Shown here piece after piece: positions 7,741 through 37,519 of a stretch of DNA of 64,000 bases. The notes beneath the pieces are model-generated. The model saw only the letters and a list, made by a program, of their open reading frames with translations. It searched no databases and was not told where the DNA came from. This stretch comes from Schmidtea polychroa (lineage: Eukaryota), in the NCBI GenBank assembly GCA_044892525.1, contig CM097885.1:82336001-82400000 (forward strand). Reading direction: 5' to 3'. The stretch's first letter is position 1, and each line of letters begins with the position of its first letter. The translations under genes were made by a program, and so were the position numbers.

Positions 7741-7788
<48 letters not shown>

Positions 7789-7843
7789 ATTGTTTAAAAA
7801 ACTTAAAAACCTCAAAAACTTATAACAATAAATAAATACTTAC

Positions 7844-8127: not shown

Positions 8128-8473
8128 GTTGTTAAATATTGTTAATAGATTTTTAAAAGTGATGAAAAAAAAATGAAAGTGTAGACTATATAAGAGAGAT
8201 ATTACAGGTTTTATTAACCGACCAATGAAAATAGAGATAGGATAGGAAAAGACGCTACATGTTTGTTTATACAAACCATGACGAAATAATGACCTTTACA
8301 CGTCTTTATTACTCAGTTCTTTGTTACTTTGCACTGTGCATGCACTGAACATGGTATAGTATTACATAATATTTTTAAACATAAAATAATAATATTTAAC
8401 AAATAATAATATTTAACAATATTTAACAAATAATTAAAATAGTCAACAAAAAAAATCATACAGTTTACATTTA

Positions 8474-8821: not shown

Positions 8822-8885
8822 TTAATAAATCCTGAGTATAAAAAACAACTTACTCCATGACAACTTTTTGTGTTTCTGTATACAT

Positions 8886-10109
8886 TTATACTAGCACGGT
8901 TCTATTTGAAGTAATTTGAACTTCATTTTCAAATACTCCATATATTATAACATGTACCGGTTCTGTAATGGCCTTTGCAAACTTAATATCCAGTCGTAAA
9001 TTCCCGTTTTGTGGTAGTTGACTCTGATTTAAATCAAAATCGGGAGCTAAAACAAATGTGAAAAATGGATATTTGCTTTTAAATTATTCTAGAGTAATTC
9101 CACAATTCAAGTTTTTATCTAAGTAACCCAGATTTCTAACAATACTCTGCATATATGTTGCACAGTAATTATCGCTTTCGAAATCTTGAGTATATGTTTC
9201 TCTATAATCAGTATTTTTCGACAAAGTCAATGAAGTAACACCAAAATTTTTGAAAATTGAGCTGGACGCAGTATAAGATCCATTATATTGTGTTTCACTT
9301 TGAAATGTCACCAGAATAAAATTAGGCATTCGTCTGTCACCAAATATTTGTTCTTTATAGAATGATGAAGCACCTTTAGCAATAGCAAATTGTACAATTT
9401 CCTTTGTTTTCAAAGGATAAATTGCATGTTTTGAATTAAGACCCAATTGATGACCAGCTAATACTGACGGGTCTACTCGAACTCTTCTCACCAATAATTT
9501 TGCATCAACTAATTGACATATTGGTGCACCAGTAGCACTAGTAAGAGATATTGCAGAATCGGACCTTTTCAATCTAATATGTATATTAACTCCCGGTAGT
9601 AAATATTTCGGTTGATCCATAAAATCAAGTTGTAATGATGAGCACATAGTGAATACTTTTGAACCTTTAACCCACTTTTTTCTTTCATCATCTGCTGCTG
9701 CATAACCCATAGGTGTAAGACAGGTATTTTTAGTATCGGAATTGTAATTTAAAATAGTTTCTATCAAAGCCTTGTGAATGAATGTATTATTTCCGCCCTC
9801 AATCTTGATATTATTAAATCCCAACACTGCATCTTTAAACAGAGTATGAAACATGAAATTGTTTGGTAATACATCCGCATTGGCATCTAAAACTTTTCTA
9901 TCTTTATCTACAACTTTGATCTGAACAGTCAATAAAGTATCGTTCAAATCTAAATATTCAGTTTGCGAACCATTAATATAAAACTCGATATCATTTCTAC
10001 TATCAGTAATTGAATTCATAGGAAAAACTTCTTCAAATGCCCCAAATTCTATTACAGCCTAGGGTGATGGTCTATCAAATATACATAATTCGGATTTACC
10101 ACAAATCAT
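8886..10109 (-). pseudogene. Double jelly-roll major capsid protein (PY) with two in-frame stops
   Basis: ATG at 10109 gives MICGKSELCIFDRPSP*AVIE (TAG 10059-10061), the typical SEL.LF..P..Q N-terminus. After TAA 9084-9086 the frame continues FKSKYPFFTF...GNLRLDIKF...VIIYGVFENEVQITSNRTVLV*, the typical MCP C-terminus. Confidence 0.9.
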
Positions 10110-10474
10110 TTTGCAAATATAGTTCCATGTCCTTTCATTCGTTTGTTTATACGTGATATTCCATGTCCTTTACGTTTTGGAGCGTGATTTGGGACTGGGG
10201 GTTCATCTTTTTGAAACATACCAGCAACTCCAGGTAGAACCTTACCTAATTCAGCTAAAGCATTTGTTTTTAGGGATGGTAATATTTTCTGTTCATTCAT
10301 AATCACATCTTTTGCAGTTTTCATACCAAAACTACCAATACGTTTAAGAATAGGAAGTGCAAATCTCCCTATTGTTTTTAACCAACCTGATCCGTACTGT
10401 TTACCAATAAAATATGGTAATTCCCCGCCAGATTGGCTATCACTATACATACTAATAATATCGGAATTAGCCAT
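10106..10474 (-). CDS. Polinton virion core/cement-type protein with GG and GxG protease-site-like motifs
   Basis: QSGGELPYFIGKQYGSGWLK...PILKRIG, a basic C-terminus, and the conserved position between penton and MCP. Its TGA overlaps the MCP ATG. Confidence 0.7.
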   Translation of the reverse strand: MANSDIISMYSDSQSGGELPYFIGKQYGSGWLKTIGRFALPILKRIGSFGMKTAKDVIMNEQKILPSLKTNALAELGKVLPGVAGMFQKDEPPVPNHAPKRKGHGISRINKRMKGHGTIFAK

Positions 10475-11533
10475 CTACTTTACGAAAATGTAGTGTCAAA
10501 TGAGTTTTTGAGTCTTTTAGGAAGTTTATAAGTTTTCCACTATCGTCACGAATATTTATTTCTATATTGTTTATATATGAGCTTGAAATTGGTAAATACA
10601 TGGGATTATCTATATTTATATTGACAACTTCATCATGTTCATATTTTCCAATCCACACCGATCTCAATATAGGAACACTGGAATCACCAACAATTATAGG
10701 CTCAATAATATTAGTATATATGAACATTTGTTGATGATGTTCAAGTATTCTTGGTTTACGTATACCAGCCGATTTTTCCCGATATTGCTGCTTCTCTAAT
10801 CCAAGTGTATTTGTCAAATTTTTATCAAATGTAACTTCGCAAATGTCATCATTCAAACTGAATGTAAATAACAAATCTTTCACAATGTCAAACTTTTAAA
10901 TATGTGTGAACAATAGTACTTTAAATATTTAAGTAATACATCAAGTTTATCAATATATAATTCGTCAGCGAAGGTGAATGATTCTTCAACTTCATTATTA
11001 TACGACACTGATATTTTGATTTCTTCTCTCATTACACTGTTTGCTTCAAATAGATCAAAGCGTAATAAATATTCTGTTTCCATAACTTCATTTTTCAACT
11101 TATTGCAGCCCATTCGTCTGGCATCTTCAATATATTCGAATGTTATTGTAAATGGTTTAAAATCACAACTGATATTTAATCCATCCTTGTAAAACATAGA
11201 GCAATGCGGATCTAATATTTGATTCGGAATATGATATGTTTTATCATAATTACTGATAATAAAGATACCACTACATGTTTTCATAGCATTCCTTTTGAAA
11301 TCAATCTTACATTGACTAAAAAATGGGAATGTATTGTACACGAATGTAAAATCTTGCAGTGCAACTTCCCAGTCCCCATTTAAAGAAATCGGATTCTGGA
11401 GATTGACCATGAATTTACTGGCTTGATTATCTGGATGAATAAGCGGCCAACTATTGCTTGGTAAAATAGTATAAAAATTCACTTTACTAGATCCTCTTCT
11501 GATATCCATGATGGGTTTTGATAACCATGCCAT
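10467..11533 (-). pseudogene. Minor capsid protein (penton, PX) split into two frames at about 10883
   Basis: N-terminal FYTILPSNS...LQNPISLNGDWEVAL and C-terminal FIYTNIIEPIIVGDSSVPILR...IEINIRDDSG...LHFR are the two conserved ends of Polinton pentons. One extra T at AGT-TT-GAC would fuse the frames. Confidence 0.85.
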
Positions 11534-12531
11534 TTGACATAGTATTGTTTATCCTTGCCGACCTTTTTAGTTTTCAATATCTTTTGAATTCTAAATACTT
11601 TTGGGGGAGGAATGACTTGTAATTCCTGCTCATAAAATTTCCCTTGTACAATATTATTATCATAATCACTGATAACATACATTACAGGACTCTGGCTAGT
11701 ATTTATTTTTGAAATTACAAAGACTTCATCACTCCAATTTGTATCGAAATTTTTAATAAATGGTGATGCACTAATTTTACTAATTCTAACATGGTCACCT
11801 ACTTTATATTTCGGTTTTGTAATTTTTACAGGTTTTTTAGAATAGATTGTTTTTGAAGTGATATCAATCGGTCTTAATCCATTCAGTCCTCGATGTGATG
11901 AATGATTATAACTGGTTATTATTTTTGGTAAAACCAGTACCCATTTTTTATTACCTTGATGCACGAATAATTTCTTTAATCTATCTCTCAATGTTCGGTT
12001 AAATCTTCCAACATGAGCAGCTTTGTATTGAGAATGTACTGAGTAATGGTTTATTTTCAATTTATTGAGGATTTGCTTGACTTTACTGTTGTAGAATTCT
12101 TTACCTAAAATAATAATAATAATAATAATAATAATATTAATACCTAAATCCGTTTGCAAGTTATTAGGATGTCCATCTTTAAATAAATCATTAACAGCAT
12201 TAGACATTTCATCTGCAGATTTTGCCTTGACGGGTATTGCTCGGGCAAACCGACTGAATACATCAATACATGTTAAAATATATTTATACCCATTGTTAAT
12301 TTTCGAATAAGGTATCATCTCCATCAAATCCATTTGCCATAAATCATTTATTCCATATGTTTTATATACTTTTGTTGGGAATCGTTTCCGCATTGGTTTG
12401 TTCAAACTGTACGCAAGCTGGTCTGATAACCACTTCTGGGTTTCTTTTTTCGAATTCGGAACTCTTTTCTTTAATTTTGCCACTCCACCGAAACCGGCTT
12501 CGTCTTCGGGGTTCGTCCAAATCTTCTCCAT
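11479..12531 (-). CDS. int: Retroviral-type (rve) integrase with C-terminal chromodomain-like region; 39-nt intron at 12143-12105; catalytic Glu appears mutated
   Basis: WQMDL, IDVFSRFA, LQTD(L)GKEF after removing the GT...AG insert, HVGRFNRTL (usually ERFNRTL), YYVKWHGY...SWI. Likely ATG at 12531. Confidence 0.93.
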   Translation of the reverse strand: MEKIWTNPEDEAGFGGVAKLKKRVPNSKKETQKWLSDQLAYSLNKPMRKRFPTKVYKTYGINDLWQMDLMEMIPYSKINNGYKYILTCIDVFSRFARAIPVKAKSADEMSNAVNDLFKDGHPNNLQTDLGINIIIIIIIIILGKEFYNSKVKQILNKLKINHYSVHSQYKAAHVGRFNRTLRDRLKKLFVHQGNKKWVLVLPKIITSYNHSSHRGLNGLRPIDITSKTIYSKKPVKITKPKYKVGDHVRISKISASPFIKNFDTNWSDEVFVISKINTSQSPVMYVISDYDNNIVQGKFYEQELQVIPPPKVFRIQKILKTKKVGKDKQYYVKWHGYQNPSWISEEDLVK

Positions 12532-12589
12532 TACAACAAGAAGATTTAATATCAAATTTAATGTCTGGTAATGAAGGATTAGCACCCAT
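12362..12589 (-). CDS. Small ORF overlapping the integrase start, with N-myristoylation (MGxxxS) and CC motifs
   Basis: MGANPSLPDIKFDIKSSCCNG. A homologous open frame of the same extent exists in the relic at 42748-42972. Confidence 0.65.
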   Translation of the reverse strand: MGANPSLPDIKFDIKSSCCNGEDLDEPRRRSRFRWSGKIKEKSSEFEKRNPEVVIRPACVQFEQTNAETIPNKSI

Positions 12590-12592
12590 TGT

Positions 12593-13087
12593 TTATGATC
12601 GACTTCCTACAACTCCACCTAATAATGATATTGCTAAAGGTATCAATGCACCGATAAATCCCCCTTGTTGTTTATATATAATTTTTCTCATTTGTTGACG
12701 ATTTTTATTATTTACTAATGATAGCAAAGGTTTCCTATGTTTACTCAATAAATGCTTTTTAGATTTACTGATTTTGATCTTGCCTTTGACTACTTTAAGT
12801 ATAATATCGAGTAAATCATCGACAACATAATTTGGAAAAGATTGCAAAATACTGTTTCTTTTCATACTGGGTGCCTTTAACAATGTATTGAAAAACGGGA
12901 AACTCCGATGATTTTTAACAACTTTTACTTTCTTAATGGTTTTACTTTTAGGTTTAGGTTTAGGATTTTTCGAAATAAGATTCATTGCAGGAAAATTTTC
13001 TGTAATAAGTTCTTTAGATGGAGTATAACTAGTTGTTGGTGGAACTTTTGGTTGTTTTTTACTCGATATCCTTGTTTTTGAAAACAT
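12593..13087 (-). CDS. Lys-rich Polinton core protein with a QQGG motif followed by a hydrophobic helix
   Basis: KQQGGFIGALIPLAISLLGG C-terminus; conserved position between ATPase and integrase. Confidence 0.7.
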   Translation of the reverse strand: MFSKTRISSKKQPKVPPTTSYTPSKELITENFPAMNLISKNPKPKPKSKTIKKVKVVKNHRSFPFFNTLLKAPSMKRNSILQSFPNYVVDDLLDIILKVVKGKIKISKSKKHLLSKHRKPLLSLVNNKNRQQMRKIIYKQQGGFIGALIPLAISLLGGVVGSRS

Positions 13088-13100
13088 GATTTATGTGTTT

Positions 13101-13739
13101 TCAAATTTGTTTTGAACTTTGTTTATAAACCATGGCACCTTTTGGGTTGAAAATATCTGTTTTTACTCGTAAATCATCAGGACATTGTTGTGTGAAATCG
13201 AGAAATATATACCCATGAGGTATTTTCGTAGCATCTTGAAATGCATTGATAAGAAAATTACGGTTATTAGGGTATGCTTGTCGTCCAAGAAAATCAATGA
13301 CAGTTGCATCTCTAGGATTCTTGAAAATAACTAGATATTATACATTTAAATTACGTGTTCGATGTGCACCACCTTGATGAAATAGATTTTGTGTTATGAA
13401 AATAACTGTAACACCAACATGTCTGCTGATTTTTGTGAATTGATTATTAAAATCCTTTTCTTTATTGGCTTCTTGATACAAATCATCGATAATGATGACA
13501 TCATCTCTCTTCAAACGACTTGACCAGTTTTTATCAAAACCCTTTACTATTTTCATGTTTTTCAACTGACAGAAACTTGATTGCGTCAATCCGTGTTCTT
13601 CATCGGCGCCCCTATGCCAATAAATATTGTTGAATTTTATTTTGAACAAATTTGATTTTAGTAATTTACAAACAAATAATGTTTTTCCGCTACCACTTGG
13701 ACCAACGATTTGGTATACTGCATCATTTCGTAATTCCAT
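13101..13739 (-). pseudogene. A32/FtsK-like genome packaging ATPase with one in-frame stop (13338-13340)
   Basis: Walker A GPSGSGKT, Walker B VIIIDD, SRH and ITQN. After the TAA the frame continues YLVIFKNPRD...AFQDATKIPHGYIFLD...LRVKTDIF to TGA at 13101-13103. Confidence 0.93.
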
Positions 13740-13845
13740 TTTTTAAATTTAAACTATATAATTATTGTTTATATTGATAATTTAAATGAACTCCGTTTTA
13801 AAATAACTATATATATAACAGAGTTTTTATAATTATTTCATTAAA

Positions 13846-14259
13846 ATGCTTTCAAATATAAATTACAGGGCAAAAGCTGATGTATCAAAAATGGTATTTC
13901 CAATGGGGAAACCACAACAACTTATCAATAGAAGTAAAAAATATCCAATAATATATTTCAAAACTGGTAAATGTAGAATTATGGGGTGTAAGGAAATAAT
14001 CAAAGCTAGTGAATATAATGTTTATGATTTAGAAATACAATCGATAACCGTAACTTCCGATATAGGTTTTTTTTGTAATTTAAATGAATTGGCTAAATTA
14101 ATACCATGTGTTTACGAACCAGAATTATTTCCAGCTTTGAGATATATAAAATATAACCCTATGTGTGTAAATATATTCGCTAGCGGTAAGATAGTAATTC
14201 TTGGAATAAAAAATATTGATTACAAATGTATAGTTGATAATATCCTATCTGAAATTTAA
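13846..14259 (+). CDS. TBP: TATA-box binding protein (TBP)-like protein, 137 aa, inside the Polinton
   Basis: Second repeat IQS...YEPELFPALRY...IFASGKIVILGIK matches eukaryotic TBP IQN...YEPELFPGLIY...IFVSGKVVLTGAK. A shortened first repeat retains YFKTGKCRIMGCK. Confidence 0.88.
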   Translation: MLSNINYRAKADVSKMVFPMGKPQQLINRSKKYPIIYFKTGKCRIMGCKEIIKASEYNVYDLEIQSITVTSDIGFFCNLNELAKLIPCVYEPELFPALRYIKYNPMCVNIFASGKIVILGIKNIDYKCIVDNILSEI

Positions 14260-16439: not shown

Positions 16440-16913
16440 AGAAAGATTATCATATGTATATATAAAATCAAACAGGCTTACTAATGATATTTTTTAAGAT
16501 CTTCTGCAAATAGAATATTCGAACAAAAATAAATTTGGCATAAAGTGTTTTTGTGACTAAAATGCGTTGGTATATATACCTATTTTTGTGTGTGCAAGTA
16601 AATTAATCATTAAAACAAACTCGATTTCTTTTTATTCTAGAATTTTCTATTTTCTATTTTTGATATCTTTAAAGGCAATTTTAGTGCCATAATTTTTGTT
16701 TTTATTTTTAAATTTTTATTTTCAAATTATTTTTTGCTAAATTTATTTAATTTCTTTGTTTATATTTTTGTTGTTTTTCTTCTTAATTAATATTATTTAT
16801 TTAGTGTATTTTTTTATATTTAACTGAACTTCTTGCTATTCGCGTGTTATGTACCCACGCACTCTAGTCACAAATTAGAGTTTTTGGGTCTAGAAATCAG
16901 TTCTAGCCCAACA
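16440..16913 (-). mobile_element. LTR-like family B copy, inverted and internally deleted
   Basis: Starts TGTTGGGCTAGAACTGATTTCTAGACCCAA on the minus strand; inverted homolog of 16978-17760. Confidence 0.7.
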
Positions 16914-16977: not shown

Positions 16978-18150
16978 TGTTGGGCTAGAACTGATTTCTA
17001 GACCCAAACTTCTAATTGTGACTGAAATGTGTAGGTACACAACATGCAAAAAGCAAAAAGTATAGTTAAATATTAAAAATACACCAAATAAACAATAATG
17101 ATTAAAAGAGAAAGAACAAAAAATATAAACACAGAAATTAAATAAAATTATACAAAAGCAAAAAGTTATGCAAAATCTAACTCAAAAATAACCAAATAAA
17201 CATAGAGTTACAAACAACAAACTCGAATAACTTAAAAGACGGTAAAAACAGTAAAAAATTCCAGAAAAACCTAGAACATTCCATAAAAATGGCGATGACC
17301 ATCATAAAAGCTACCTTAAACAATAAAATTTAGAAAAAAAAATAAATAAATTAGTAATAAAAATAAAAAATCTTAAAAAGAAATTCATAAAACATCAGTT
17401 AAAATAAAAATTAAATTAAAAGTAATATAGAATGTTCTGGAACCGTTCCAAATCCATCATGGACGTAAAATTAATGAAAAATAATTAAAAAATAAAAATT
17501 AAAAAATAAAAACAAAAATTATGGCACAAAAATTGCCATTAAAAATATCAAAATCGCGAAATAGAAAATTCTGGAATAAAAAGAATTCGAGTTTGTTTTA
17601 ATGCATCAATACATACACGTGTACAAAATAGGTATATAGGTATATAGGTATATATACCGACACGTTTCGGTCACAATTGAATCACTTTATGCCAAATTTA
17701 TTTTTCTGCTGAAAATTTTGGAACTATTAGTAAGAACGATTTTATTTGCATCATAATATATTTTTTGTATAACTCATATTATTTTTAAAATTTTTTTTGT
17801 CTATTTTATTTTGGATCGTTGAATGTAAGAGTGGTTAGAGTCGTACCGATTGTATACGCCTCTGATCAGCCTTGCATTCAACCAGACTTTAAAATCAAAA
17901 GCCACATGCAGACATACATTATCCTTACTATATTTTTTTTGTTCGGTCATCGGAGGTCGTCCACTTCATGGTTCCACCATGGAGTTGTGTCGATAAAACC
18001 CCTCCGCTTTGGCTCCAACTATTTATTATCGGTCGACAGCGGTATGTTTCGACTCAACACTACAGTAGGGCTTGTCGTAGCGGTCACAGTGGGGCCGTGT
18101 AAGCAAGCATTCTTCCCTAGTTCAAATACAATACACAATTAAAATCAACA
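16978..18150 (+). mobile_element. LTR-like family B copy; right boundary tentative (…AAATCAACA)
   Basis: TGTTG start. The first ~660 bp are nearly identical to 22380-23040. Confidence 0.65.
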
Positions 18151-19493
18151 TTAAAATTTTCATACACTATTTCACACTAGGATCATAATTGAGTAGATCT
18201 CAGACTTAACTAAACATCATCTTACAATTCAATAATGCAGTCGGTTGGGCATCATTAAAGAACTCAGCTACACTTACACGTTTGTCGAACCTCATTTAGA
18301 AATAATTTTTCGTATCAGTGTAAATATCTTTCTCGAAATTAACCGTAATAATGCTCATAAAGAAGTTCGACAAGCGTGAATCGTAAAATGAACTATATAC
18401 TCTCCTGTTACACTTAAACATCAGTCTATAAATATATGATATTCCTAAACTATAGAAGATATGTTAGAAGCGCTAAATACTTAGAATTCCTGAATGGTAA
18501 ACTATAACTTACTACTGTACTTAGAATTATATTTGATAAATATGTAATACCTCTAAATTATCAATATAAGTTTATATCGTATAATTTATAAATGTGTAAA
18601 ATCCTAATTTATAAAATTTTACTTCATATTGTTTCTAAAAATATAATTCATAAATGTATAAAATATAATTTATAAATTTTAAATTGGGAAATACCTCTTA
18701 ATACTATGCCTGAAATACAATGCGTAATGTTCCTAAATTATAAAATCTTACTTTATACTATTCTTAAAAATATCATTTATAAATGTGTAAAATAGAATTT
18801 ATATCAAATTATAAGATATATGCTTGAAAAGAAATTTTAAATTGTGTAATACTCCCAAATTATAAAATTTTACCTTATATTATTCTTAAAATTATACTCT
18901 ATACCTGGGTAAAATATAATTTATAAACGTTAAATTGTAAAACGTAACTTAGTACTATGCTTGGAAAAAATAATTCATTATAAAATATAACCTAATTCTA
19001 TAGAATATAAGTTATAAATGTATAATATTCCTAAAGTACGAAAATGATTTTATATTGTACTAAAAAATTACAATTCATAAATATGTAACCTTACTAAATT
19101 ATAAGATTGTAGTAATTGTGACTGGTAGATCCTACCTTGAAATCACCAGTAGCAAACTAAAATATAAACTCCTACTACGTATAAAATATAAAACATATCT
19201 TAGTATTTTCTGTAACAAGTATAAAGTCGTACTACGCATAAATACAAATTACATCCTAGAATTATACATAAACTATAAGTTTATATTGCCCAGAAATTAT
19301 AGAATGTGACGTATGCGTAAAATGTAAATTACAAACTATCAGGTATAACTTTGGTTGTAAACTGTAATTTCGATATCCATAAATACAAGTTGTAAACTCC
19401 AAAGAATAGAAACTATAACTAGTTATATATAGTTTATGAGTCCGTAAAGTGTGAATTGCAAGGCTGAAGTATGGATTATGGAATAATTATATA

Positions 19494-19790
19494 AAGTATA
19501 AACCGTAAATTATTTGCATAAAAGTATAATCTAATTATATATCTCAATTACAAGCTTATAAAATACAATGGTAAATCTAAATTACAAATTGTAAACTTAA
19601 AATTATATATATGAAGTATAAACCGTAAATTATTTCTATACGGGTATAATCTAATTATATATCCCAAGTACAAGCTTATAAAATACAACAGTAAATCTAG
19701 ATTACAAATTGTAAACTTAAATTATATATGAAGTATAAACCGTAAATTATTTCTATAAAGGTATGATCTAATTATATATCCAAATTATAA
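19494..19790. repeat. Approximately 120-bp AT-rich tandem repeat, about 2.5 copies
   Basis: GTATAAACCGTAAATTATTT recurs at about 19496, 19616 and 19733. Confidence 0.8.
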
Positions 19791-21496
19791 AATTAGATAT
19801 CAAAATTATATATCTAATTATATATCTAAATTATATAAACTTATTAAATACAATCATAAATTTAGATTACAAATTATAAACTTATTAACTCCAAATCAGT
19901 AGTAGTTAATAAAATACAACCCATAGACTCAAACTCATGGAAATATAAATTGCAGACTCATATGTCTAAAACCTAAAATAAGAATTCTTATGAACGACCC
20001 CTTTTTGGGTAACCTGAAAAAATACAAACTTACATTGGTTAATATGATTATCATTATCAAATTTGTTATTATTGTCATTATTGTTACTGTTATTTCCGTT
20101 AGCATTATTATTAGTACCATAATTCCACTTTAGTATTATTAAAATGTTATATTTATTTTATACAGTAAGAATTATAAAACAAGTTATAGATTTAGGATTC
20201 ACCGTATTGTCAGATTTAAAATTAGCATACTCTGATCCAATGAAAACTATCAAAATCACCAAACTCTATTTTTAGTAACGACCCCCCAGAAAGCCATAGC
20301 AATAACAATAATTACCACCGAAATTTCATATAGGTATGTGTGGGTAGGTATATATAAAAATATGAATTAAGCTGTCCCCGAAAATACACCAAATTATACA
20401 ATAACCATGACAAAGTGCAATACCTGATTGAAGCTATAAAACCAATTTATTTCCAATCGAATCAAAAGAAAGTCGTAATTGTTAAAATTTATTTATACCG
20501 AAATTTCATATCATTTTCATTGAATCACATTTATACCAAAGTCCTTCGAACTTAGCTGATGTCCTGTCCTAATGAAATCCATTCCCGGAAGCCGGAGAGC
20601 TTTTACGAAATGCATTATTCTCTGTTTCAGCTTTCCTCGCCTTGAATGGACTAGTCCATAAGAGACAATTTGCCCCAGCTCAGCGGCTGGCATATTATCT
20701 GGAAGTGTTGATGTTGGAGGGCCGATGAGATCTCCTGCTTTCCTTTGAATTAGTCATAGACAGATAAATCGCGGTAAGCTCCACTCGAAGGATAGACTGG
20801 TAGAATGGACGTTGAGATATCCAATTTTTCGTGCCCCAACAGATAATTATAAATTCGCTAATATGGAATGAAAATTGAGATCATGTTAGAGTGAGGGTTA
20901 ACATCGCTGCGGAGAACTTTCATTAATGCTTCCAACGCTCTTTGCTCACTCGAGTTGCCACAACGTATTAATGGTCGATTGAGGTGGCTCCGGAAGATTC
21001 GGCCGGGTACTTCTAGCACTCAAGTAAGGTTAAGAGTTGTAGATAATCCCTGAAATATAACGTATTTATAAATGTCTAAACTTTCAATTTATCTTACATT
21101 ATGCAATCCAAATCAAGTAAAATTATATTGATTTGTTATTTAAAATTTGGTATTCAAAATTAATCTTAATTACTATAATAAAACACCGTATGATAAATGA
21201 CTTTTATACAAGGATAAAGTAAAGGTAACATTGACTTAAATTATTAGTTTACTGGTTGTCCAAAAATTTTAACATAATGAATTTCAGAATATTAACTTTA
21301 TTAGTCGAGGATATTTACAAATTAAAAATTAAAGTAAATTAGAATTGTGCACTCGGGTCTAAAAATCCGGAGGACGATAGTTCGGTGGCGCCAACATGAA
21401 TTGTTCTTATTTTTCTTAAACATCCGATCTATTACGGGCAACGGAAACGAGTGGAAGTTGACCTTAGTATAGAATTTAAAACCTTGCTTTCATATA

Positions 21497-21898
21497 ATGA
21501 CCGACAGAACTATAACAGAAATAATTATAGAAATGTCTCACTCCGACGACTCCAACGATGATGAAGCCTACAGACAAATGATCACGCGGCTCCGGACCCG
21601 GTACATCTGGTACCGGATCCATGATTGGAACCGGGGGTTGGACCTAGATAATTATGGTCCGATCATCCGAAGTGGCCCAGAGCCCGATGCCCCGGCGTGG
21701 GTGGAAACAGAGCCCGTTAACAATTTGTTACGAGAAGCCCGCGATCGAGCAGCTGTCGAGGTAGAAGTTGCCCAGATGCGACTGAAGAGAATCGAGCTCC
21801 AGCTCAGAGCCGAGGCAGAGGGAGTAACCCTCTAAAAGCTAGAAGAGACAGATGCTCCTCCACGAAAACGAGGGAGGCCCCGTAAGAACCCTGCCTAA
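21497..21898 (+). pseudogene. Small GC-rich ORF with coiled coil and C-terminal AT-hook, interrupted by one TAA (21833-21835)
   Basis: The frame continues after the stop as KLEETDAPPRKRGRPRKNPA*, containing the AT-hook core RGRP. Confidence 0.55.
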
Positions 21899-22379
21899 CT
21901 CGTCGGCAGTGGTAACTTGAACAAAACTATTTGACTAATCTGATCTAATGATATTGTGTTGCGTTTGACTTCATTAGTAGTTAGTATGACGAATTGTAGA
22001 CTTTTTTCTTTATTAAAATTTTTATATTATAGTATGTCGTGTGTCTTCATCATATAATAAATTATCTTTTTGTTATTACATTTGAGCCTTATAGCTTAGG
22101 GGGTGTCTTCAGGGTTGAGGTGACCTTCCCTATCCTTCATCCATTATTTTTATGCAATTAATCGAATCACCTTTACGCACATGGAATCTAGCTATGGAAT
22201 TTTATTATTATCTTCATTCAGTGTACAAATTACTCGAAAATCTACGCAAGGACCGCGAACAGGCCCAGCAACAAGCCGAAGACCTTCGAAGTCGGGTCGA
22301 GAAGCTCAAAGTCAAGTGTCGAGAACTCGAAGGTACTTGGTTCAGTCCGGCTGAGATGAAGAAAAGAACAACACACATC

Positions 22380-23600
22380 TGTTGGGCTAGAACTGATTTC
22401 TAGACCCAAACTTCTAATTGTGACTGAAATGTGTAGGTACACAACATGCAAAAAGCAAAAAGTATAGTTAAATATTAAAATTACACCAAATAAACAATAT
22501 TAATTAAAGGAGAAAACAACAAAAGCATAAACACAGAAATTAAATAAAATTATACCAAAAGCAAGAAGTTATGCAACATCGAACTCAAAAATAACCAAAT
22601 AAACATAGAGTTACAAAAAACAAACTCGAATAACTTAAAAGACGGTAAAAATAGTAAAAAATTCCAGAAAAACCCAGAACATTCCATAAAAATGGCGATG
22701 ACCATCACAAAAGCCATCTAAAACCATAAAACGATGAGAAAATAAATAATTTAGTAATAAAAATAAAAAATCTTAAAAAGAAATTCGTAAAATATCAGTT
22801 AAAAATAAAAATTAAACTAAAAGCAATATGGAATGTTCTGGAACCGTTCCAAATCCATCATGGACGTAAAAATAACAAGAAATAATTAAAAAATAAAAAT
22901 TTAAAAATAAAAATAAAAATTATGGCACTAAAATTGCCATTAAAAATATCAAAATTACAAAATAGAAAATTCTGGAATAAAAAAGAATTCGAGTTTGTTT
23001 TAATGCATCAATACATACACGTGTACAAAATAGGTATATATACCGACGCATTTTAGTCACAATTTAATCTTTTTGTATGCCAAAAATTTTCGCAGCAAAT
23101 TTAAACAACACCGAAAGTAAGGCCTATTGTCTGCATATATTTTATAATTGTTATCTTATTATTCTGTTTTATTATATTGATTATTATTGAATTATTCTTT
23201 TGTCTTTTTATTCTACTATTACGAAATAAGAGTGACCAGCATCATCGTGGACGGGTTATAGTCACGATGCTGATCAGCCTTGTTTTCAACTACTATTTCA
23301 CATACACAAATTCGGGTCTATGACCCAACATGCACAAAATTTCATTTTTTTTTAAACCAAAAGGTCGCCACGAACAAATGGTTTCTAACCAGGAGTAGGG
23401 CGGGTAAATCCATCCAGGTAGTTGGCATAGTTACGGGGACTATGCGGACGAAATAAAATTTGGGAAAGTAATCGCGGGAAACATAATACCATAAGGCCTA
23501 TCGTACCGTATTCAGTTGAGTCGGGAAAGTAGGAAAATTTTAATTAAATCGACCTTTCGGTAAATCACATACATAAAATGTACACTCAAATATTCTATAG
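22380..23600 (+). mobile_element. LTR-like family B copy, a direct repeat of 16978; right boundary approximate
   Basis: Same TGTTGGGCTAGAAC start. It abuts and truncates a coiled-coil frame at about 22230-22379. Confidence 0.65.
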
Positions 23601-23904
23601 GAAATACATCATTAGGAACATCTAAACGGGAAATATCCCAGACTCAAATTATCACAAAAGTTCTCAAGTAGTCGGCTAATTTCACAAACTATTATTCAGT
23701 ATGCTCAATATTAACTATCATTAATAAACTACTAATGTTATTTATAATTTTATTCAATCATAAATGTAATCTAGGTCACGTTCGATGGTGTATTATTATA
23801 AACTAAAATCATTTCGTAAAATTTTCATACTTACCTTTATATGTATTGAAATTTAGCTTATATAAAATCTTTAAAGATTTTTTTTGTGTGTCCTAATAAT
23901 ACAA

Positions 23905-24390
23905 TCATCTTTGGGATCATTATTATTATCATTATTAATTTTCTTAAAATTACATTAATAAAGTGTATGTCATTACCCTATAATAGCATATATAAGTATG
24001 TTAAACTTCATTAATATATATTTAACTTACATTATGTTTAGAAAATCATAAATTATAAATTTTCTTAAATGACCCTCCCCCCGAAATATATATTCATTAC
24101 CCATTATACAAATATCCTAAATGAACTTATTGTAGTATGTTAAAAATGATAATTTATCAATTTTCATCTTTAGGATCATTATTATTATCATTATTAATCT
24201 TCTTAAAATTACATTAATAAAGTGTAGATCATTACTGTATAATTGCATATATAAGTATATTAAACTTTATTAATATATATTTAACTTACATTATGTTTGG
24301 AAAATGATAAATTATAAATTTTCTTAAATGACCCCCCACCCGAAATATATATTCATTACCCATTACATAAATGTCCTAAATTAACTTATT
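23905..24390. repeat. Approximately 260-bp direct tandem duplication
   Basis: ATCTTT(G/A)GGATCATTATTATTATC…AAATGACCC…CCGAAATATATATTCATTACCCATTA occurs twice. Confidence 0.85.
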
Positions 24391-24720
24391 TTAATTGTAA
24401 CAGGTTAAAAAGGATAATTCGTAAATTTTCATAACTGCCCCTTGCACAAATTGACTTTTTGTAATATAGATTTAACTTGCAATATATCTAGAATAATTAC
24501 TTATAAATTTTTATAAATGACCCTTTTTGATTCCTATGGTCCTTAATGATTACCTAGAAGTATTAGTTGATTCTGCTTCTAGGCCTAGTTAGCTTATATT
24601 ACTTAAGAAATATCATTGTATATCTCAGAGCGAAAAATGAGTCCATAACTTTCCGAAATTGATTCCCCGTATGTGGTAACCTTATAAACTACGAATTTAC
24701 ATTTATTATTATTATCATCA

Positions 24721-24969
24721 NNNNNNNNNNNNNNNNNNNNNNNNNNNNNNNNNNNNNNNNNNNNNNNNNNNNNNNNNNNNNNNNNNNNNNNNNNNNNNNN
24801 NNNNNNNNNNNNNNNNNNNNNNNNNNNNNNNNNNNNNNNNNNNNNNNNNNNNNNNNNNNNNNNNNNNNNNNNNNNNNNNNNNNNNNNNNNNNNNNNNNNN
24901 NNNNNNNNNNNNNNNNNNNNNNNNNNNNNNNNNNNNNNNNNNNNNNNNNNNNNNNNNNNNNNNNNNNNN
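24721..24969. other. Assembly gap (N run)
   Basis: 249 N. Confidence 1.
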
Positions 24970-26057
24970 TTATTATTACTACTATTAGTGTTCTTACCAT
25001 TAACATTTTCACCCTTGTCATTACCATTACTATTATTACTATCATTATTATTACGTTATTAAAATAATTATAATTTTTTTTTTAATTAAAATTTTAGCTA
25101 AAATTATTGATTTTTGGGATCCCCTTATGTCTAAATTTAAATGTACAAATTTAAATCACTTCGGATGCTCGCTTCGCGAGAATTATCTGACCAATTACTC
25201 CCATCGCTGTAAATTCACGAGAACTACTGAAAAATCCCTGAACCTCCTCGAGTGCAAGTAGTGAACTTAAAATTCCAGGGGGTAGACCCGAAATCTGAAA
25301 TAATTATTAATTCCCAGCTAAACCCTCGCAAATTTAGAATGCTGGCCTATTCTGAACTCCCATCAAACAGTGGCATCTCGAAGAAATTATTTAAGTTGTC
25401 ATCTTCAAATTGAAAAGTTTGGAGACTCATTCCTGAAATTATACCAATTTCAAAAATTTCAAAAGCTAATTTACCCGTTAAGTATCCGTTGATGAGGGAG
25501 CTACTTACAACCACTATGGTCAGGGATTCGCAAGAGCTGAATGTAAATTCAGACAATTTGCAATATCCGCTTCCCATAGTGGGTCCTAGTAGTATAAATT
25601 TTTCCAAAAAATTATCAATAGAGAATTCTAAAAATTATTAAATGAAAGATAATATTTGAATTAATATAGTTTGGTATAAATAGTTAAATTAAATCTTTGA
25701 ATGATTTAAACAACCACTATTGGAAGTTTGTAAAACTTTAAATGCTCATTTCTACTGTATCAATCATTAGTTCATCGAAACCAAGCTCATGGATTTCCAC
25801 TTTAAACATACGAACTGCAATTCTGTAACTGATACTTATAATTTGAATTTCGTAATTCTCAAGCCAACCTAAATTACATCGAAAATCAAAAAGGGGAAAA
25901 TTGGCACATTAAGTTCATTTTTTTTCACCACCTAAAATATCATTGCCATACGGGTCACGTTTGAATTTAAATGCAACAGTGCGTTAAACGTCTTGGGGTA
26001 ACCAGACGTAGACGAGCGAATAGAAATTTTTCTAATATGTTCTCTTAATATCTCAGG

Positions 26058-26440
26058 CATGCCTACTATTAGCCCAGAAGACAGCCACGCGAATCCCTCG
26101 GCATCTACATCCAGACTCAACCTAAACTAAACTGATCACTCAACTGCAACTCCAGAGTGCCCAAGATCAGGTTGAGTTGCGGGCCCTCCGCCTTAGAGTG
26201 AAGGAGCTGGATATCAAAGTTCTCCAAAAGGATCTCGACCGAGATGTCATCTCCAAAGTCCGGCCCATGAGTGAGCTGCTCCACAACCCAAAGGAGCGCG
26301 CATCACTGAAAGTCCCGAGGAAGAAGATCCGACCGGGTAAAGCGGCGCGGGCGAGAATGAGACAAGCCAGCCAAGCCCAATTAACACATCATTCTGCGGT
26401 GTTAGAGCCTACTCCGAAGGAATCATCCACGACACTATAA
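26058..26440 (+). pseudogene. Basic coiled-coil ORF, unit 1 of a tandem pair; probable frameshift near 26125
   Basis: ITQLQLQSAQDQVELRALRLRVKEL…RKKIRPG aligns with unit 2. The ATG at 26058 is one base out of frame. Confidence 0.5.
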
Positions 26441-26543
26441 TTTTAGATTGTGTTCTCCTAATAAAAATTTACAGGTGTATTCATATCTGGGCATTTCGAT
26501 TTTTTCCATAACGTTGATTATCATAACGGGGACTAAAAGAAAC

Positions 26544-26762
26544 CGGACAGAGTCCTTCTATCGGCAGTCCGTGAACCCCAGTGGGTGCTAGACAATTATA
26601 GTATGCTAAGCATGCTCACTTTTTGCTGGTGCCCAAACCCTTGATACAGTACCAACGTTGATTACTCAACGGGTATCAAGTGGTCAGCTATAAATTGTAT
26701 CCTGGGTTACGCTGGAAACAGCAGGAGTAGGTAGAAACTTTGAAAGTACCTGTAACCCACCA
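26544..26762 (+). ncRNA. Candidate structured RNA, copy 1, ending in GGGTTAC…GTAACCC-A-CCA
   Basis: Several stems show compensatory changes relative to copy 2, plus a GNRA tetraloop hairpin (GCTG-GAAA-CAGC). Confidence 0.6.
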
Positions 26763-27066
26763 CATCTCACAACTCCAGACCCAGGCGGAGCAGGATCAAC
26801 TCGAAATCCGAGCGCTGAAGCTACAAGTGCGCTCGCTCGAGAGCAAACTGAACGAAAGGTTCATCCAGGACGCTCTCCGAGAGCAGATTCGCCCACTTCC
26901 CGTGGAGCTGGCCAAGATATACCCACCAGCCCAGGCAAGGAAGCCGAAACGTAAACGACTAGGGCGGAATACACGAGAAAAATTGAAAAGGGCCTGGCTG
27001 GCCGAGCAAGAAAAATTGAAAGAGCCTGAAGCCACTCCACGATCCTGGGTAAAACCGACATTGTAA
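26763..27066 (+). pseudogene. Basic coiled-coil ORF, unit 2, 5'-truncated with no ATG
   Basis: ISQLQTQAEQDQLEIRALKLQVRSL…RKPKRKRLG. Homology to unit 1 starts within a few nt of the upstream CCA. Confidence 0.5.
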
Positions 27067-27196
27067 TATTGTAGTGTTTAAATAAATGATTTTCATTGTC
27101 TAATGGATATGTGATTAAACTTTGTGATTGTTCAGAACAAGACGGTCGACAGAAAAGCGTTTGGAAAAACAATCTCGATAAGGGACCGAAATAAAT

Positions 27197-27403
27197 CGGA
27201 CACATGCCTTCTATCGGCCGTCCATGAACCCATAGAGTGCTCGACAATTATAGTGCTCTTAACGCGCTCACTTTTTGCGAGTACTCAACCCCTTGGTACA
27301 GTACCAACGTTGATTACTCAACGGGTACCAAGTGGAAAACAATGTTGTATTCTGGGTTACGCTGGTAACAGCATTCAAACTTTCAACCACCAGTAACCCA
27401 CCA
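27197..27403 (+). ncRNA. Candidate structured RNA, copy 2, ending in GGGTTAC…GTAACCC-A-CCA
   Basis: Same stems as copy 1; GCTG-GTAA-CAGC GNRA hairpin. Confidence 0.6.
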
Positions 27404-31109: not shown

Positions 31110-32211
31110 TTAATTGTCGATGAGTCTCAAAGCAATCAAAAATTTTTCTTCAATCTTTTGAGATACATATATACCTTTATAATTTGTCTCATAGACATTT
31201 TGTCCACACTTTGTTTCAGTTTCTTTTCTCAGGAATCGCATCCCATCTTCCTCCGAGGTTGACATTAACACTGTTGGAGTATCTTTCATCCGTAGCGGTG
31301 TGATTCTTGTTGTTGTACTCGTTGCTGGATCCATTCTTATTTTCTCAGACTTTTCCCTGATCTGCTCTCCCGTTATTTCTTTAAAACTCATTGACTTCAA
31401 TTGCAATAAATTGCACTTTTTGGTATCGACATCGTACACCAAGATTGATTCTCCGGTCTGACAGCTAGATTGTTTCATGTTGCAGAATGGATGTGTTTGT
31501 AGTTTACCAGTATCATCATCAAATGATCCATCAAATTCTCTTAATTCTGACATGTACTCTTCCACAACCACGTCTTTGTCAATTATAGCATCGTCTACTT
31601 TGTAGGGCTCTCCTTGGCAATCACCATTCGACTTTATTATCCCTCGCACGGTTACAGTCTCACGTATTTTGTGGTTAAGCTTTGCTTGTAGTTTAATATC
31701 TGCATTGATTTTCAACTGCCCTGTTTGAAAGGCTGCCAAACAATTCTCTGGAATTATTTCTATCGGTCTCGGTATCGATTGCATTTTCACCATCGATGAG
31801 TGGCTCCATTTTCCACAATAAAATACAAAAGTAGTTCTTTTCGCTGCACACTCTCTCACCTTTGCTCGTCGAAACCCCGATTCTTGATATACATGATATA
31901 TATTTTACTGGATTTGTCACTTTAAATTTTACTGGATATGCATCCGAACACTCTGCTACGTTTACCAACGAATATACTCTTCCCATTTCGGTTTGGGAAC
32001 AGTCGTATGCCACCAATGAATTCGTCGTGTTTATTATTCCCAATAACATAATAATAGAAATCATCAACCATGGAAATGCGAGTTTTCCCTTTTTCCTCAA
32101 TGTCTCTGTTTTTGGGCTCTCAGCCTTTTGTATTAACTTTTCCCATCCGCCATTGTTTGCCATCCCCTTCATCAAATATTTATTTGTCATTTCAGTGGCT
32201 TTCTTTATCAA
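31110..32211 (-). pseudogene. env: Envelope glycoprotein resembling chuvirus/Monjiviricetes class III fusion proteins; frameshifted at about 31895, C-terminally truncated
   Basis: Signal-like segment (AFPWLMISIIMLLGIINTTNS) followed by LVAYDC…YSLVNVAEC. Removing 2 nt of the TATATA run gives KYHVYQESGFRRAKVRECAAKRTTFVFYCGKWSH, then ENC, GDCQG, PFC…SCQT, KCN and KCGQNVYET. Confidence 0.75.
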
Positions 32212-32217
32212 TGATTT

Positions 32218-33590
32218 TTAATTGTCAGCTTCCAGACAACCATAAATACCAATCTCCAATATTATATAGGCTAGCACTGTCAATATTACATCTCGATCCA
32301 ACTCGGCTCGTGTTAGGTCCTCAATTACTGCTTCCTCACAAAATTCCTTTTCTTCATAATTTCTTTTAATTATCGACGGTAATCTCCTCTTTAATTCCGT
32401 TGCCAATCTTTTTATAACTCTTTTCTCCCCCTCCGAATTATCATCTCCTTCTGTTTCAGTTTCATCTAACAAGTACAATTCCGCAACTAAACTTTTTAAT
32501 ATTCGCTCAGTTTCGCTTGATTCATCTAAACTCAAAAATTCAATTTCCGCATCATTCTGTTTTTTTCGACATTTCGCAATGTCATTTTTCGTTTCAACGA
32601 AGTTCTCATCACTTTTCATCTCATCTATGCTCGGTAGTACCCTATTATCGGTGCTCATTTCCTCGATATCCCTTGTAACTTCATTTTCCGATCCCATTTC
32701 CTCATTTTCCATTGTTTCTAATCTCTGCAATTCATTAATTTCTTGATCAATTTCTCTTGGGTCATCTACAACTTCAGTTTTAATCTCTACATTATCATTA
32801 TCCGTTTCCTCATACAGAGGCCAAAACGGTACTATTACTGCATCTTTTTCCATTTCATCACTTTGTTTTGTTGCGTACACATTATTAATACAATTTGGGT
32901 TACATCCGTAGTTTAACAAATATTCGTCATCATCCAATTCTCGTCCTTTGAACGTCAACACGATAATTCCTTCATTACCTAATATCTCCGCTGCTTTTTG
33001 TCCTATTTTCTTTGCTTTTACACTCCAATGTTCCTGATAATATTCAATCCTTTGATCCGTAATATTTAACGCTATTATCAAAGACTTCGCACTATCGTTT
33101 GCAGCCTCATAATCATGTCCTAGTTTTCGGATTACCTCTTTCAACTTTGCCTGATAACTTGTCGGTTTATTCGTATACAGTACGATGCATTCAAACAACA
33201 CTTCTTTTATGTCTCGATCCATTTCGATGCTCATTATGAAGTTCATTATGATGCTCATTAATTTTATCTCTATTCCCTGCATACAGGGTATCTTGTAAAT
33301 CTGCTAGAATCTTTTCCCAATTTTGTCTGTCTGAATTCAAAGTATTAACAGCATTAACAACATTTACTTTATTCTTCCAGCCTGGTATCAGACCGCAATC
33401 TACCAAGTACTCCTCGTCTTCCAGACATCGATTCTCAAATTTTAATTGCACTTGCCACCCACTGTATTGCCACTCCTTTACTGCCCTCCTTATCAAATAG
33501 ACCGTAACTGCAAAAATACACTTAGGAGATAAATAGCAAAACGTGTTTTCAATTCTGCCAAACAGTTAACCTAAACCAATCATCCATTTA
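32218..33590 (-). pseudogene. Accessory frame with two ubiquitin-like domains and an acidic region; frameshift near 33285; in frame with env across one TAA
   Basis: QLKFENRCLEDEEYLVDCGLIPG and VLTFKGRELDDDEYLLNYGCNPN resemble each other and ubiquitin [20 protein letters not shown]. Confidence 0.6.
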
Positions 33591-33694
33591 TATTTCTAAG
33601 GCCTCGGACTAGATACGGTCTTATCGCTAAGCAGAATGAAGGTTAATTGCAACTGCATACAGTTGACGCCTCTAACTCGATTTTTGTAGTTTTG

Positions 33695-34195
33695 TCAGTT
33701 ACGGTCTATTTGATAAGGAGGGCAGTTTAGCTCTCTGATTTGTCCGTATGCATTTACACGGAATTGGCACTTCACATTATCCAGGCCCGTCGTTTCCATT
33801 ATGATATCAGCTAAATCCCTTGTTGGCCGTAAAGCCTTGCCAAACTTTTGCATTTGTTTAAGTATCTCATCGTCTCTGTTTCCTTTGAATAACTTTGCAC
33901 ATAAATTTATGGCTCTCTTTAGTTCGCTTTGGGTTAGTGACATCACACTGAGTTCTGCGATCCATCGTTTCAACTGGTAGTTGTCAGTTTCCATTTTCTC
34001 AAGCCATTTTTCGACTCGGGCTAACAGTGCAGTCGGATTCTCATCTGATGCGATCTTTCGCACTTTCGTGGCAGGTTTTCCCTCACCTTCTGACACGGTT
34101 CCAATTATCATATTAGATTCAGTTTCCTCATCTGATTCAAATTTAGCCACTAATTTGTTCAGCTTCTGTCGCATTTCTCGAAATTCCTTTTCCAT
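33695..34195 (-). CDS. Helical/coiled-coil accessory ORF of the LTR element, unknown function
   Basis: 166-aa ATG ORF between gag and the UBL frame. Confidence 0.5.
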   Translation of the reverse strand: MEKEFREMRQKLNKLVAKFESDEETESNMIIGTVSEGEGKPATKVRKIASDENPTALLARVEKWLEKMETDNYQLKRWIAELSVMSLTQSELKRAINLCAKLFKGNRDDEILKQMQKFGKALRPTRDLADIIMETTGLDNVKCQFRVNAYGQIRELNCPPYQIDRN

Positions 34196-34235
34196 TTTGT
34201 CTTAAAATTCCTCTCTTTGAGAATATGTCATATTA

Positions 34236-35356
34236 CTAGTGTTTGGCATATCTTCTTGGAATCTGATCGATTTCTTTAATATAGGTCTGCTGAATCCCTC
34301 TGAGTTCCTTGCACGAATGACATTGGATCTGTCCATTTGTATTCACTTTGTCCCTTTGTGGTGAAGGTGACGTTGACGATGATCTTGACCTGGTGAAACA
34401 GTTTCTGCTAATATGCCCTTTCTTTCCACATCGATAGCATTCGACATCACTGATGATCCGTTTGTTTTCTGTGAATCTCTTGTTAGGGCTGGGATTTTTC
34501 CCATATTTGAACCAACATTGATTTGAGTAGTGTCCAGACTTTTTGCAATGTTCGCATTGAGGATTATTCATCTGTCCATTTGATTGTACGTTCATGGCTG
34601 GTCTACTGGCTTGAAATCTATTATTTGGTCTCAAAATTGGACTACTGATTTGATTTATTTTCTTTTCATCCCATGGTGCTCTCACAGGCGTAATTGACCG
34701 CTCGCGTCTCTCCAAATTAACTCCAAAAGCATCTGATCTTTTTGCACTTTTTAAATTCAGCTCTATCTTCATGGCTTTCTTCACGAGCTCGTCGAAATTG
34801 GAAAAATCCACATAACATAGGGCTTTTTTGATTTCGGAGTGAACTCCGGTTATAAACTGATCTTCTAACAGCTCTTTAATCTGCTTGGCCATATCTGCTT
34901 GGTCTGGTTTAACTTCAAAGGCTTTATCTGCTAAAGTGGTCAGATGATAAGCAAACTCACTGACCGATTCATCTGGACATTGAACTCGATTATAAAATTT
35001 TGTCGCATGATTCTTTTGATATCTCCACCAACCAGTTTCAGTACCATTGCATCCTTCAATTTTGTTCAATCATTGCCAACATTCCGTTTGTCGACTTGCT
35101 GCCAGGCTTCTCTTGCCGCACCCTTCAGATAGAGTGGGAATCTCTGAACCATAATGGCTTGTGTCCATCCGTATGCTGAGGCGTACATATAATAATCTCC
35201 CATGAAATCTGCAAATTCAACAGGGTCTCCTCCATATTGATTGACGGGTAATTTCTGGCAACTTGCGAAATCAATCATCTCGCTATTGAGAGGCATAACA
35301 GCATTATCATTTGCCATTTGGACTTGTTTCTGACTTCTGAAGTTGTATCGGTTCAC
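34236..35356 (-). pseudogene. gag: Gag polyprotein with retrotransposon-gag domain and CCHC zinc knuckles
   Basis: QRFPLYLKGAAREAW, then a TGA at 35066-35068 and a 1-nt deletion near 35000, then FYNRVQCPDESVSEFAYHL. Knuckles CEHCKKSGHYSNQC and CYRCGKKGHISRNC, and a broken third (CHSCKE). Confidence 0.9.
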
Positions 35357-36732: not shown

Positions 36733-37049
36733 CTTTTATGAATAATATAAGTTCAGTATAATTTATGATTTATACTTTTATGAATAATATAAATTCAGTA
36801 TAATTCATATTTTTATGAATAATATAAGTTTAGAATAATTTATAATTTATATTTTTATGAATATTATAAGTTCAGTATAATTTATAATTTATATTTGTGA
36901 ATTTACATAATGACAAACATATTTGATTTATGGGTTTTTTAAATTCATAATCTAAGTCTTACCGATACGCATGTCGAATACCTTTATGAGTATCATCACA
37001 TTTAATCCAATTATTATAAATTTCGAAAAATCTTTCCATATGAAATTAC

Positions 37050-37519
37050 AGTTAATTTTTATTTTAGCAGTTTTTTCTGAATTCTTTTCTTGAATTTTAA
37101 TTCTAAAACTAACTTATTTATTTTTATTAACTTTTATTGATTTGAATGGCTTCCATGATGGATTTCGCCATTTTTATGAATTGTTCTGGATTTTTGTCTA
37201 GAATTTAGCATTTCTACTATGTTTCGACTTTATTCGAGTTTGTTTTTTGTATTTTTATGTTTCTCTGTAATGTTTGAGTCAATTTTCTGTGATACTTCTT
37301 GTGTTTATTTGATTTTATTTTTAATTTAAATGTTTTTATTTTCTGTTACTTTCTTAATTATTATTGTTTATTTGGTGTTGAATATTTCTATTTAACTAAA
37401 CTTACTGCTGTTATGTACCATCACATTTTGTCACATTTACAAGATTTTGGGTCTAGGAATCAGTTCTAGCCCAGTGAAACACAGTTGAGAACTCGATCGC
37501 CATTTACGGAGACCTCAAC
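37050..37519 (-). mobile_element. LTR-like family B copy, more diverged, inverted
   Basis: TGGGCTAGAACTGATTCCTAGACCCAAAA on the minus strand ending at 37473, preceded by TGTTGAGGTCT at 37519. Confidence 0.55.

Follow-up and report, generated by a model that had tools for sequence, protein, structure and literature searches.

Two giant solo LTRs of a Burro-like Gypsy element lie nested on the plus strand of the window, the whole 64,000-nt stretch of Schmidtea polychroa DNA analysed here (contig CM097885.1, positions 82,336,001 to 82,400,000). The two folded stretches under study form the last ~220 nt of these LTRs (Table 1). LTR B carries the target site duplication (TSD) ATAT at either side, and LTR A, which has the TSD CATC, sits within it. 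What the initial annotation had taken for a duplicated block is therefore a pair of real copies that is not a local duplication: a solo LTR is nested in a related solo LTR, and the copies are the two LTR ends. Judged by alignment to a 5,722-bp copy, LTR A is ~1 kb shorter than most relatives at 26127/26129, with a smaller gap near 25140. Both window copies are solo LTRs without a primer-binding site (PBS), so that the RNA structure is probably idle at this locus.

Table 1. Positions in the window of the nested LTRs and of the parts of the folded block
Feature	Copy A	Copy B	Strand	Remarks
Solo LTR B		16978-27403	+	TGTTGGG...CCCACCA, split by LTR A; ~6.0 kb minus insert
Solo LTR A	22380-26762		+	within ORF2 of LTR B; TSD CATC at 22376-79 and 26763-66
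LTR-internal ORF2, 3' part	26126-26440	26763-27066	+	basic tail in A; part in B paralogous
AATAAA, candidate poly(A) signal	26460-26465	27081-27086	+	from sequence
P1 hairpin	26544-26571	27197-27223	+	near-invariant loop UUCUA(N)(C), T-loop-like
T-arm box TGAACCC	26572-26578	27225-27231	+	complement of tRNA-Pro T-stem 5' strand and TPsiC loop; PAS-like
P2 (stem A)	26583-26634	27235-27286	+	near-invariant AGU/GCU pairs, 1x3 loop Y/CAC
P3 (stem B)	26640-26680	27292-27332	+	8x1 internal loop AGUACCAA/G at 26648-55
P4	26695-26762	27345-27403	+	GGGTTAC/GTAACCC stem, GNRA hairpin, LTR end
Right att end CCCACCA	26756-26762	27397-27403	+	imperfect inverted repeat of TGTTGGG

When the genome was searched with the window copies, copy A had 2,636 first-look candidates and copy B had 2,836, of which 40 were scored for each. 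Among the scored genomic copies, matching ends at ACCA in 29/29 other type A loci and 24/24 other type B loci, as had been noticed for the two window copies. The terminal sequence where relatives of A and B cease to match is ...GTAACCCACCA, and all copies stop there because the LTR ends there. In 15 longer loci the unit opens with TGTTGGG, and the 14 units for which both ends were located measure 4.9-7.4 kb. Matching 4-bp TSDs flank 10 of these 14 copies, two of them in (AT)n runs and two pairs being possibly duplicates of one insertion; among the other four, a PBS follows two, a third is a 3' LTR and the last lacks a TSD. The unit thus has the TG...CA ends, short inverted repeats and 4-bp TSDs of a Ty3/Gypsy LTR. 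The R/U5 boundary may be placed by the candidate AATAAA, 84 nt upstream of P1; if this signal is used, the entire fold lies within U5.

The LTR holds two ORFs (window 21520-21900, 22222-22379, 26126-26440 and 26763-27066). ORF1 has a basic tail with RGRPRK at its end, a motif which we take to be AT-hook-like. ORF2 resembles a coiled coil and has an Arg/Lys tail; full-length copies carry a splice-acceptor-like TTTTAG ahead of it. The parts of ORF2 in LTR A and LTR B had no Pfam match. The claim that the folded block is better conserved than the neighbouring ORF was borne out: the block is 78% identical (171/219), and the 3' part of the ORF only 49% (166/339).

The window has several other features. 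Minus-strand fragments of the 5' end of the same LTR family are found at 16551-16913 and 37034-37473. Broken minus-strand ORFs at 31113-35069 look by eye like the internal region of a similar element, with a gag-like part containing CCHC and a glycoprotein-like part. An ORF cluster on the minus strand (3286-13742) includes a 1,292-aa ORF and capsid-like, integrase-like and ATPase-like ORFs, and a TBP-like ORF stands beside it (13819-14256, plus strand); by eye, this cluster looks Polinton/Maverick-like. Plus-strand exons of a host gene at 59714-63830 encode Ig-like and LDL-receptor-like repeats and appear perlecan-like by eye.

Element family and primer-binding site

Between LTR pairs elsewhere in the genome, gag, CCHC, MATH, viral fusion glycoprotein, protease, RT, RNase H, integrase and ankyrin domains were found. 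The pieces, examined separately, place gag and the order PR-RT-RH-IN between two LTRs, as in Ty3/Gypsy elements. The likeness to Burro/GYPSM1 is one of layout and size: the element measures ~30 kb or more and has multi-kb LTRs, MATH and ankyrin domains and an in-frame fusion-protein domain between gag and pol. Some element copies have shorter LTRs of ~1.5 kb. According to the available part of the published description, planarian Burro/GYPSM1 shares the domain order found here (gag-CCHC-MATH-fusion glycoprotein-PR-RT-IN-ankyrin), LTRs of up to about 5-7 kb, an internal region of ~25 kb and a number of copies in the thousands (PMC6431247). Unlike the present account, that part describes no U5 RNA structure, PBS spacer or tRNA boxes (PMC6431247). 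Literature searches returned no paper on Burro U5 structure; the text and supplements of Grohme et al. 2018 may bear on novelty.

An 18-nt PBS pattern had 1,058 exact matches in the genome, while the reversed pattern had 0. As in Ty3/Gypsy elements, a PBS for a host tRNA thus follows the 5' LTR; it is the full 18-mer complement of the 3' end of host tRNA-Pro(UGG) and starts 7-8 nt past the CA of the LTR. With such an ordinary host tRNA-Pro PBS, the element needs no self-made primer. The initial annotation had come close in suggesting a site of RT initiation. Every lineage found uses tRNA-Pro. Among 29 junction-like matches with a non-Pro fourth PBS base, no lineage primed by another tRNA was found; those with the fold upstream were mutated Pro PBSs or flank-like. 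In the genome, genes for tRNA-Pro(UGG) are arranged in tandem at C1:130.90-130.95 Mb, repeating every 475 bp, and there are also arrays of tRNA-Lys and tRNA-Arg genes; a tRNA-Pro 3' pattern had 2,164 genome matches.

LTR-PBS junctions were sampled from the first 100 listed of the 1,058 matches. Of these 90 junctions, 31 read CCACCA followed by an 8-nt spacer, 58 read YAACA followed by 7-8 nt, and one was unrelated. The 7-bp GGGTTAC stem and the GNRA hairpin were present at 29/31 junctions of the ACCA lineage and at 0/59 others, and the sister lineages ending in CAACA/YAACA retain the core fold. Folding of 46 distinct 5' LTR ends (34, and 12 in the ACCA lineage) predicted that the last helix extends past the LTR end into the spacer, with 5.5/7 spacer nucleotides paired compared to 2.2 with random spacers (n = 34). 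The margin is weaker in the ACCA lineage (4.75/8 nt versus 3.4 with random spacers, n = 12), where the final A of ACCA is predicted to be paired in 12/12 folds. The predicted pairing of the P4 base (TTGTAT) with the spacer beyond the LTR is confined to 5' LTR copies. ACCA is the integrase end of the LTR DNA (TG...CA), flanked by 4-bp TSDs, and not the tRNA-like RNA 3' end that had been proposed.

At the opposite end of the internal region, no polypurine tract of the Ty3/Gypsy kind was found ahead of the 3' LTR in the copies seen. In its place, two lineages have a conserved hairpin AATTGCG-GG(T/A)-CGCAATT and GGCCCCCG, then 7-8 nt, then TGTTGG. The PBS end is its mirror image, with a 7-8 nt spacer and GGGGGC; before integration, the DNA may therefore have long extensions at either end, and the plus strand may start from an unusual primer.

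The RNA fold and its covariation

A pattern built on two loop motifs of the block matched the genome 7,704 times, compared to 145 matches of the reversed pattern, which corresponds to about 7,500 copies. Loop variants without CC gave only 40 matches, many of which look decayed. From 136 copies in hand, 110 were anchored by sequence motifs and 26 were dropped, many of them being decayed or chance matches. Covariation was analysed in 24 representatives less than 92% alike (median alignment score per length 0.57). In a MAFFT alignment made from sequence only, 92.5% of positions pair over 32 pairs in six helices, a test that favours the structure since it was drawn from the same sequences. Double-sided changes were found in 24/32 pairs, and 0/500 shuffles reached the observed values on four of five measures. 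When partners were slid along the alignment, pairing was reduced to 35-41%. Further support is provided by RNAalifold, which independently returned P3 with 12/14 pairs covarying. Paired positions contain 47 G-U and 6 A-C combinations, and G-U being far above A-C indicates that the plus strand folds. Folding z-scores of the two blocks were -2.6 and -3.9. The covariation is far beyond the shuffle and slide controls. The RNA fold is real, has four domains and is kept across divergent families, with covarying helices in P1-P3. The stems hold with compensation among homologs, and the initial annotation was right that this is a functional RNA: the structure is under selection and lies outside the Rfam families.

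The stems drawn earlier from the two copies alone were all recovered. Stem A, our P2, keeps 9/9 pairs at 26583-91/26626-34 and 27235-43/27278-86, and stem B, our P3, lies at 26640-47/26673-80 and 27292-99/27325-32. The hairpin CGTTGA-TTAC-TCAACG caps P3 at 26656-71 and 27308-23, the GCTG-GAAA/GTAA-CAGC hairpin of P4 is found at 26711-22 and 27361-72, and the GGGTTAC/GTAACCC stem followed by ACCA finishes at 26762 and 27403. The closing pairs of P1 are kept in 24/24 representatives, including a C-G to U-A swap. In P2, the pairs that adjoin the CAC bulge are almost fixed (A-U 24/24, G-C 24/24 and U-G 23/24), and the 8x1 loop of P3 finishes in near-invariant CCAA. Homologs of window positions 26614-26622 read GCTCACCTG in most lineages, which is CAGGTGAGC on the minus strand, and GCTCACTTT in the A/B lineage. 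CAGGTGAGC is a strong 5' splice-site-like word, and GCTCACCTG resembles the U1 snRNA 5' end.

Rfam contained no match at the gathering threshold in the window and none over the block at E<=10; two chance matches lie outside the block. ARAGORN detected 0 tRNA genes, and a relaxed run made only inconsistent calls, mostly intron-split or wrapped. A trivial match to a tRNA-derived SINE, which had been named as a possible objection, was accordingly not obtained, and neither a tRNA cloverleaf nor a conserved unpaired NCCA at an RNA 3' end was found in the junction ends and 5' LTR folds. With a covariance model that scored the window copies, which are part of its training set, at 107-112 and a held-out copy at 80, none of 14 loci in viral contigs and 24 metagenome loci obtained by pattern scan exceeded 15.5 bits. 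The block is covered by contigs from sequencing runs that are presumably of RNA; these are uninformative on start, end and strand. The fold was not found described in the literature searched; the element and the function suggested below are of a known kind.

Predicted contacts with tRNA-Pro and alternative roles

The linker between P1 and P2, (U)GAACCC(G), is an exact complement of the T-stem 5' strand and TPsiC of tRNA-Pro, that is, of the very segment that is freed once the 3' 18 nt of the tRNA anneal to the PBS. A T-arm-complementary box upstream of the PBS is one mark of a PAS-type signal. It scores at least 6 in 16/24 representatives, compared to 12% of control windows and 11% of shuffles, and at least 7 contiguous pairs in one register were counted in 85/110 copies, several variants keeping the pairing via G-U. 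The box lies 184-239 nt from the PBS. It occurs on both sides of the deepest split in the tree and was lost in one clade of 7 representatives. As it was inherited from one ancestor, the match is close to a single event, and its probability by chance is roughly estimated at about 1-2%. The box is often predicted to be paired within its own RNA (unpaired probability 0.05-0.49), and it fits host tRNA-Lys(UUU) nearly as well (14/24 representatives). Complements of the D arm, of 10-11 pairs, score at least 10 in 5/24 representatives versus 0.5% of shuffles. Three of these are situated in P4 of the clade that lost its T-arm box; the remaining two belong to a second clade, in a hairpin that precedes P1. 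In the lineage of the window copies the D-arm scores are 5-7, short of a strong box. CCAA, in the loop of P3, has a single perfect partner in tRNA-Pro, the anticodon loop, and also complements UUGG at the start of the PBS and GUUGG at the start of the LTR. Perfect tRNA pairing does not account for the invariant UUCUA loop and the CAC bulge.

We propose, with moderate confidence and from sequence comparison, that the block, which is the U5-side end of the LTR, likely serves as a four-domain platform that docks and activates the host tRNA-Pro primer for reverse transcription. The full-length element RNA would fold P1-P4 beside the PBS, with P4 predicted to close just 5' of it by pairing over the LTR end into the 7-8 nt spacer. 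Annealing of the 3' 18 nt of tRNA-Pro to the PBS would release the T-stem 5' strand. This strand would then bind the (U)GAACCC(G) linker that follows P1, in the manner of the HIV-1 primer activation signal. In some lineages the D arm may pair with a second box, as in Ty1/Ty3, and the CCAA of P3 may either meet the anticodon loop or cover the opening bases of the PBS.

Such contacts have precedents. The available part of one source states that a PAS is present in all retroviral genomes, and describes for HIV-1 a structured leader 5' of the PBS with a short box for the primer T arm, as well as an unpaired A-rich loop complementary to the anticodon loop (PMC11181671). Several points differ from the HIV-1 signals described there: the present contacts are predicted, tRNA-Pro acts as primer, the box is placed between two hairpins about 185-240 nt upstream, the LTR-PBS spacer measures 7-8 nt and the helices and loops share no sequence with those of HIV-1. 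In Ty1 and Ty3, according to the available parts of the literature, additional boxes pair with the T arm and D arm of the primer tRNA (PMC4974528, PMC5371799). In contrast to the arrangement reported in these parts, the PBS is here a full 18-mer, the boxes lie upstream in the LTR and not 3' of the PBS or in U3, and the D-arm box occurs at two different places and in some lineages only. Helenus TRIMs, as far as the available part of their description goes, also represent an animal LTR element with 4-bp TSDs and a tRNA link in the LTR, but they are short and non-autonomous and their LTR contains tRNA-derived sequence (PMC10886601). No tRNA gene match was obtained for the block studied here; it is complementary to tRNA and not derived from it. 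The setting is ordinary: LTR elements are expected to have structured U5-PBS leaders and to make extended contacts with their primers, and the CCA end is explained. If the docking role is true, a multi-domain RNA that docks the primer and has an activation signal like that of retroviruses is deeply conserved in a Gypsy-type element beyond those of yeast and flies. The about 7,500 natural copies supply covariation, so that each proposed tRNA contact is testable on a 300-nt RNA in vitro.

Two further proposals are less probable. The more favoured of them, unlikely on balance though a serious candidate, is that the main role of P1-P3, at the 5' end of the genomic RNA, is to signal packaging or to bind Gag/nucleocapsid, with only P4 serving the PBS. 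The invariant bulges and the near-invariant U-G pair of P2 resemble protein-binding sites, the element has a Gag with CCHC knuckles, and the 5' end of Ty1 RNA carries Gag-binding and packaging signals according to the available part of PMC4974528. However, there is no conserved self-complementary apical loop for dimerisation, palindromes of at least 4 nt being present at the P2/P3 tips in 4/24 representatives, and a packaging role leaves the T-arm and D-arm complements unexplained. Packaging and primer docking are compatible and do not exclude each other. The second proposal, a speculative extension of primer docking that we regard as rather unlikely, is a T-box-like tRNA reader in a retroelement. 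The 8x1 loop of P3 would show the proline codon CCA plus A to U33-G36 in the anticodon loop of tRNA-Pro(UGG), the T-loop-like P1 together with GAACCC would take the elbow and T arm, and the lineage-specific boxes would take the D arm. With three or four points of contact, such an RNA would itself choose its primer and open it up before passing it on to the PBS, and one clade would have swapped the T-arm contact for a D-arm contact.

Also doubtful, and slightly more so, is a TAR/RRE-like element or a poly(A)/splicing control element bound by LTR-encoded basic proteins or U1 snRNP. The LTR ORFs finish in Arg/Lys-rich tails and contain the RGRPRK motif, AATAAA lies just upstream, and the P1 internal loop of most non-A/B representatives contains GUAAG, presumably a 5' splice-site-like word. 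Yet the A/B lineage keeps the fold without GUAAG, the LTR ORFs are much less conserved than the RNA, and U5 is present in both LTRs and therefore cannot by itself distinguish the 5' from the 3' end.

We hold it to be very unlikely that the block is conserved at the DNA level, whether as sites for integrase, as promoter sites or because minus-strand strong-stop DNA folds, or that it is an IRES. It adjoins the att end, and CCAAC of the P3 loop resembles the att end and complements the start of U3; the prevalence of G-U over A-C pairs, however, favours plus-strand RNA, and the first long ORF, which starts ~4 kb past the PBS in the one element examined, is far for an IRES. The initial annotation had also mentioned a ribozyme or IRES, and no support was found for either.

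Least probable of all is a self-cleaving ribozyme or a tRNA-like 3' CCA end, which RNase P/Z would cut or the element would use to prime itself: the 7-bp stem and ACCA of the A/B lineage, the T-loop-like UUCUA loop and the invariant internal loops are set against the YAACA majority of junctions, the lineage-specific stem and hairpin, the predicted continuation of the helix through ACCA in 5' LTRs, the host PBS, the ARAGORN and Rfam results, and the consideration that a cut in U5 would part R from the template needed for strand transfer. The 3' tRNA-like ends of retroplasmids and plant viruses likewise present a short stem followed by ACCA, which is here seen in one lineage; unlike those, the block is not a free 3' end, its end is not conserved in sister lineages, and a host tRNA primes.

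Other candidates were discarded by inspection against consensus motifs: HDV-like, hammerhead, hairpin and twister ribozymes, a dicistrovirus IRES and Pol III A/B boxes. An intron of the form GUAAG...CUCAC...CAG was rejected, its AG not being invariant and GUAAG being absent in A/B. The linker is too short for a UUC/GAA pseudoknot, and kissing-loop dimerisation was dropped for the few palindromes at the P2/P3 tips (4/24).

The motif can serve as a marker to find and orient giant LTRs that are otherwise unalignable. A more distant lineage, of which the copies seen look decayed, shares the layout of P1, T-arm box and P2 but has AGCATTAA, AGCATCAA and AGTAACAA among its P3 loops.
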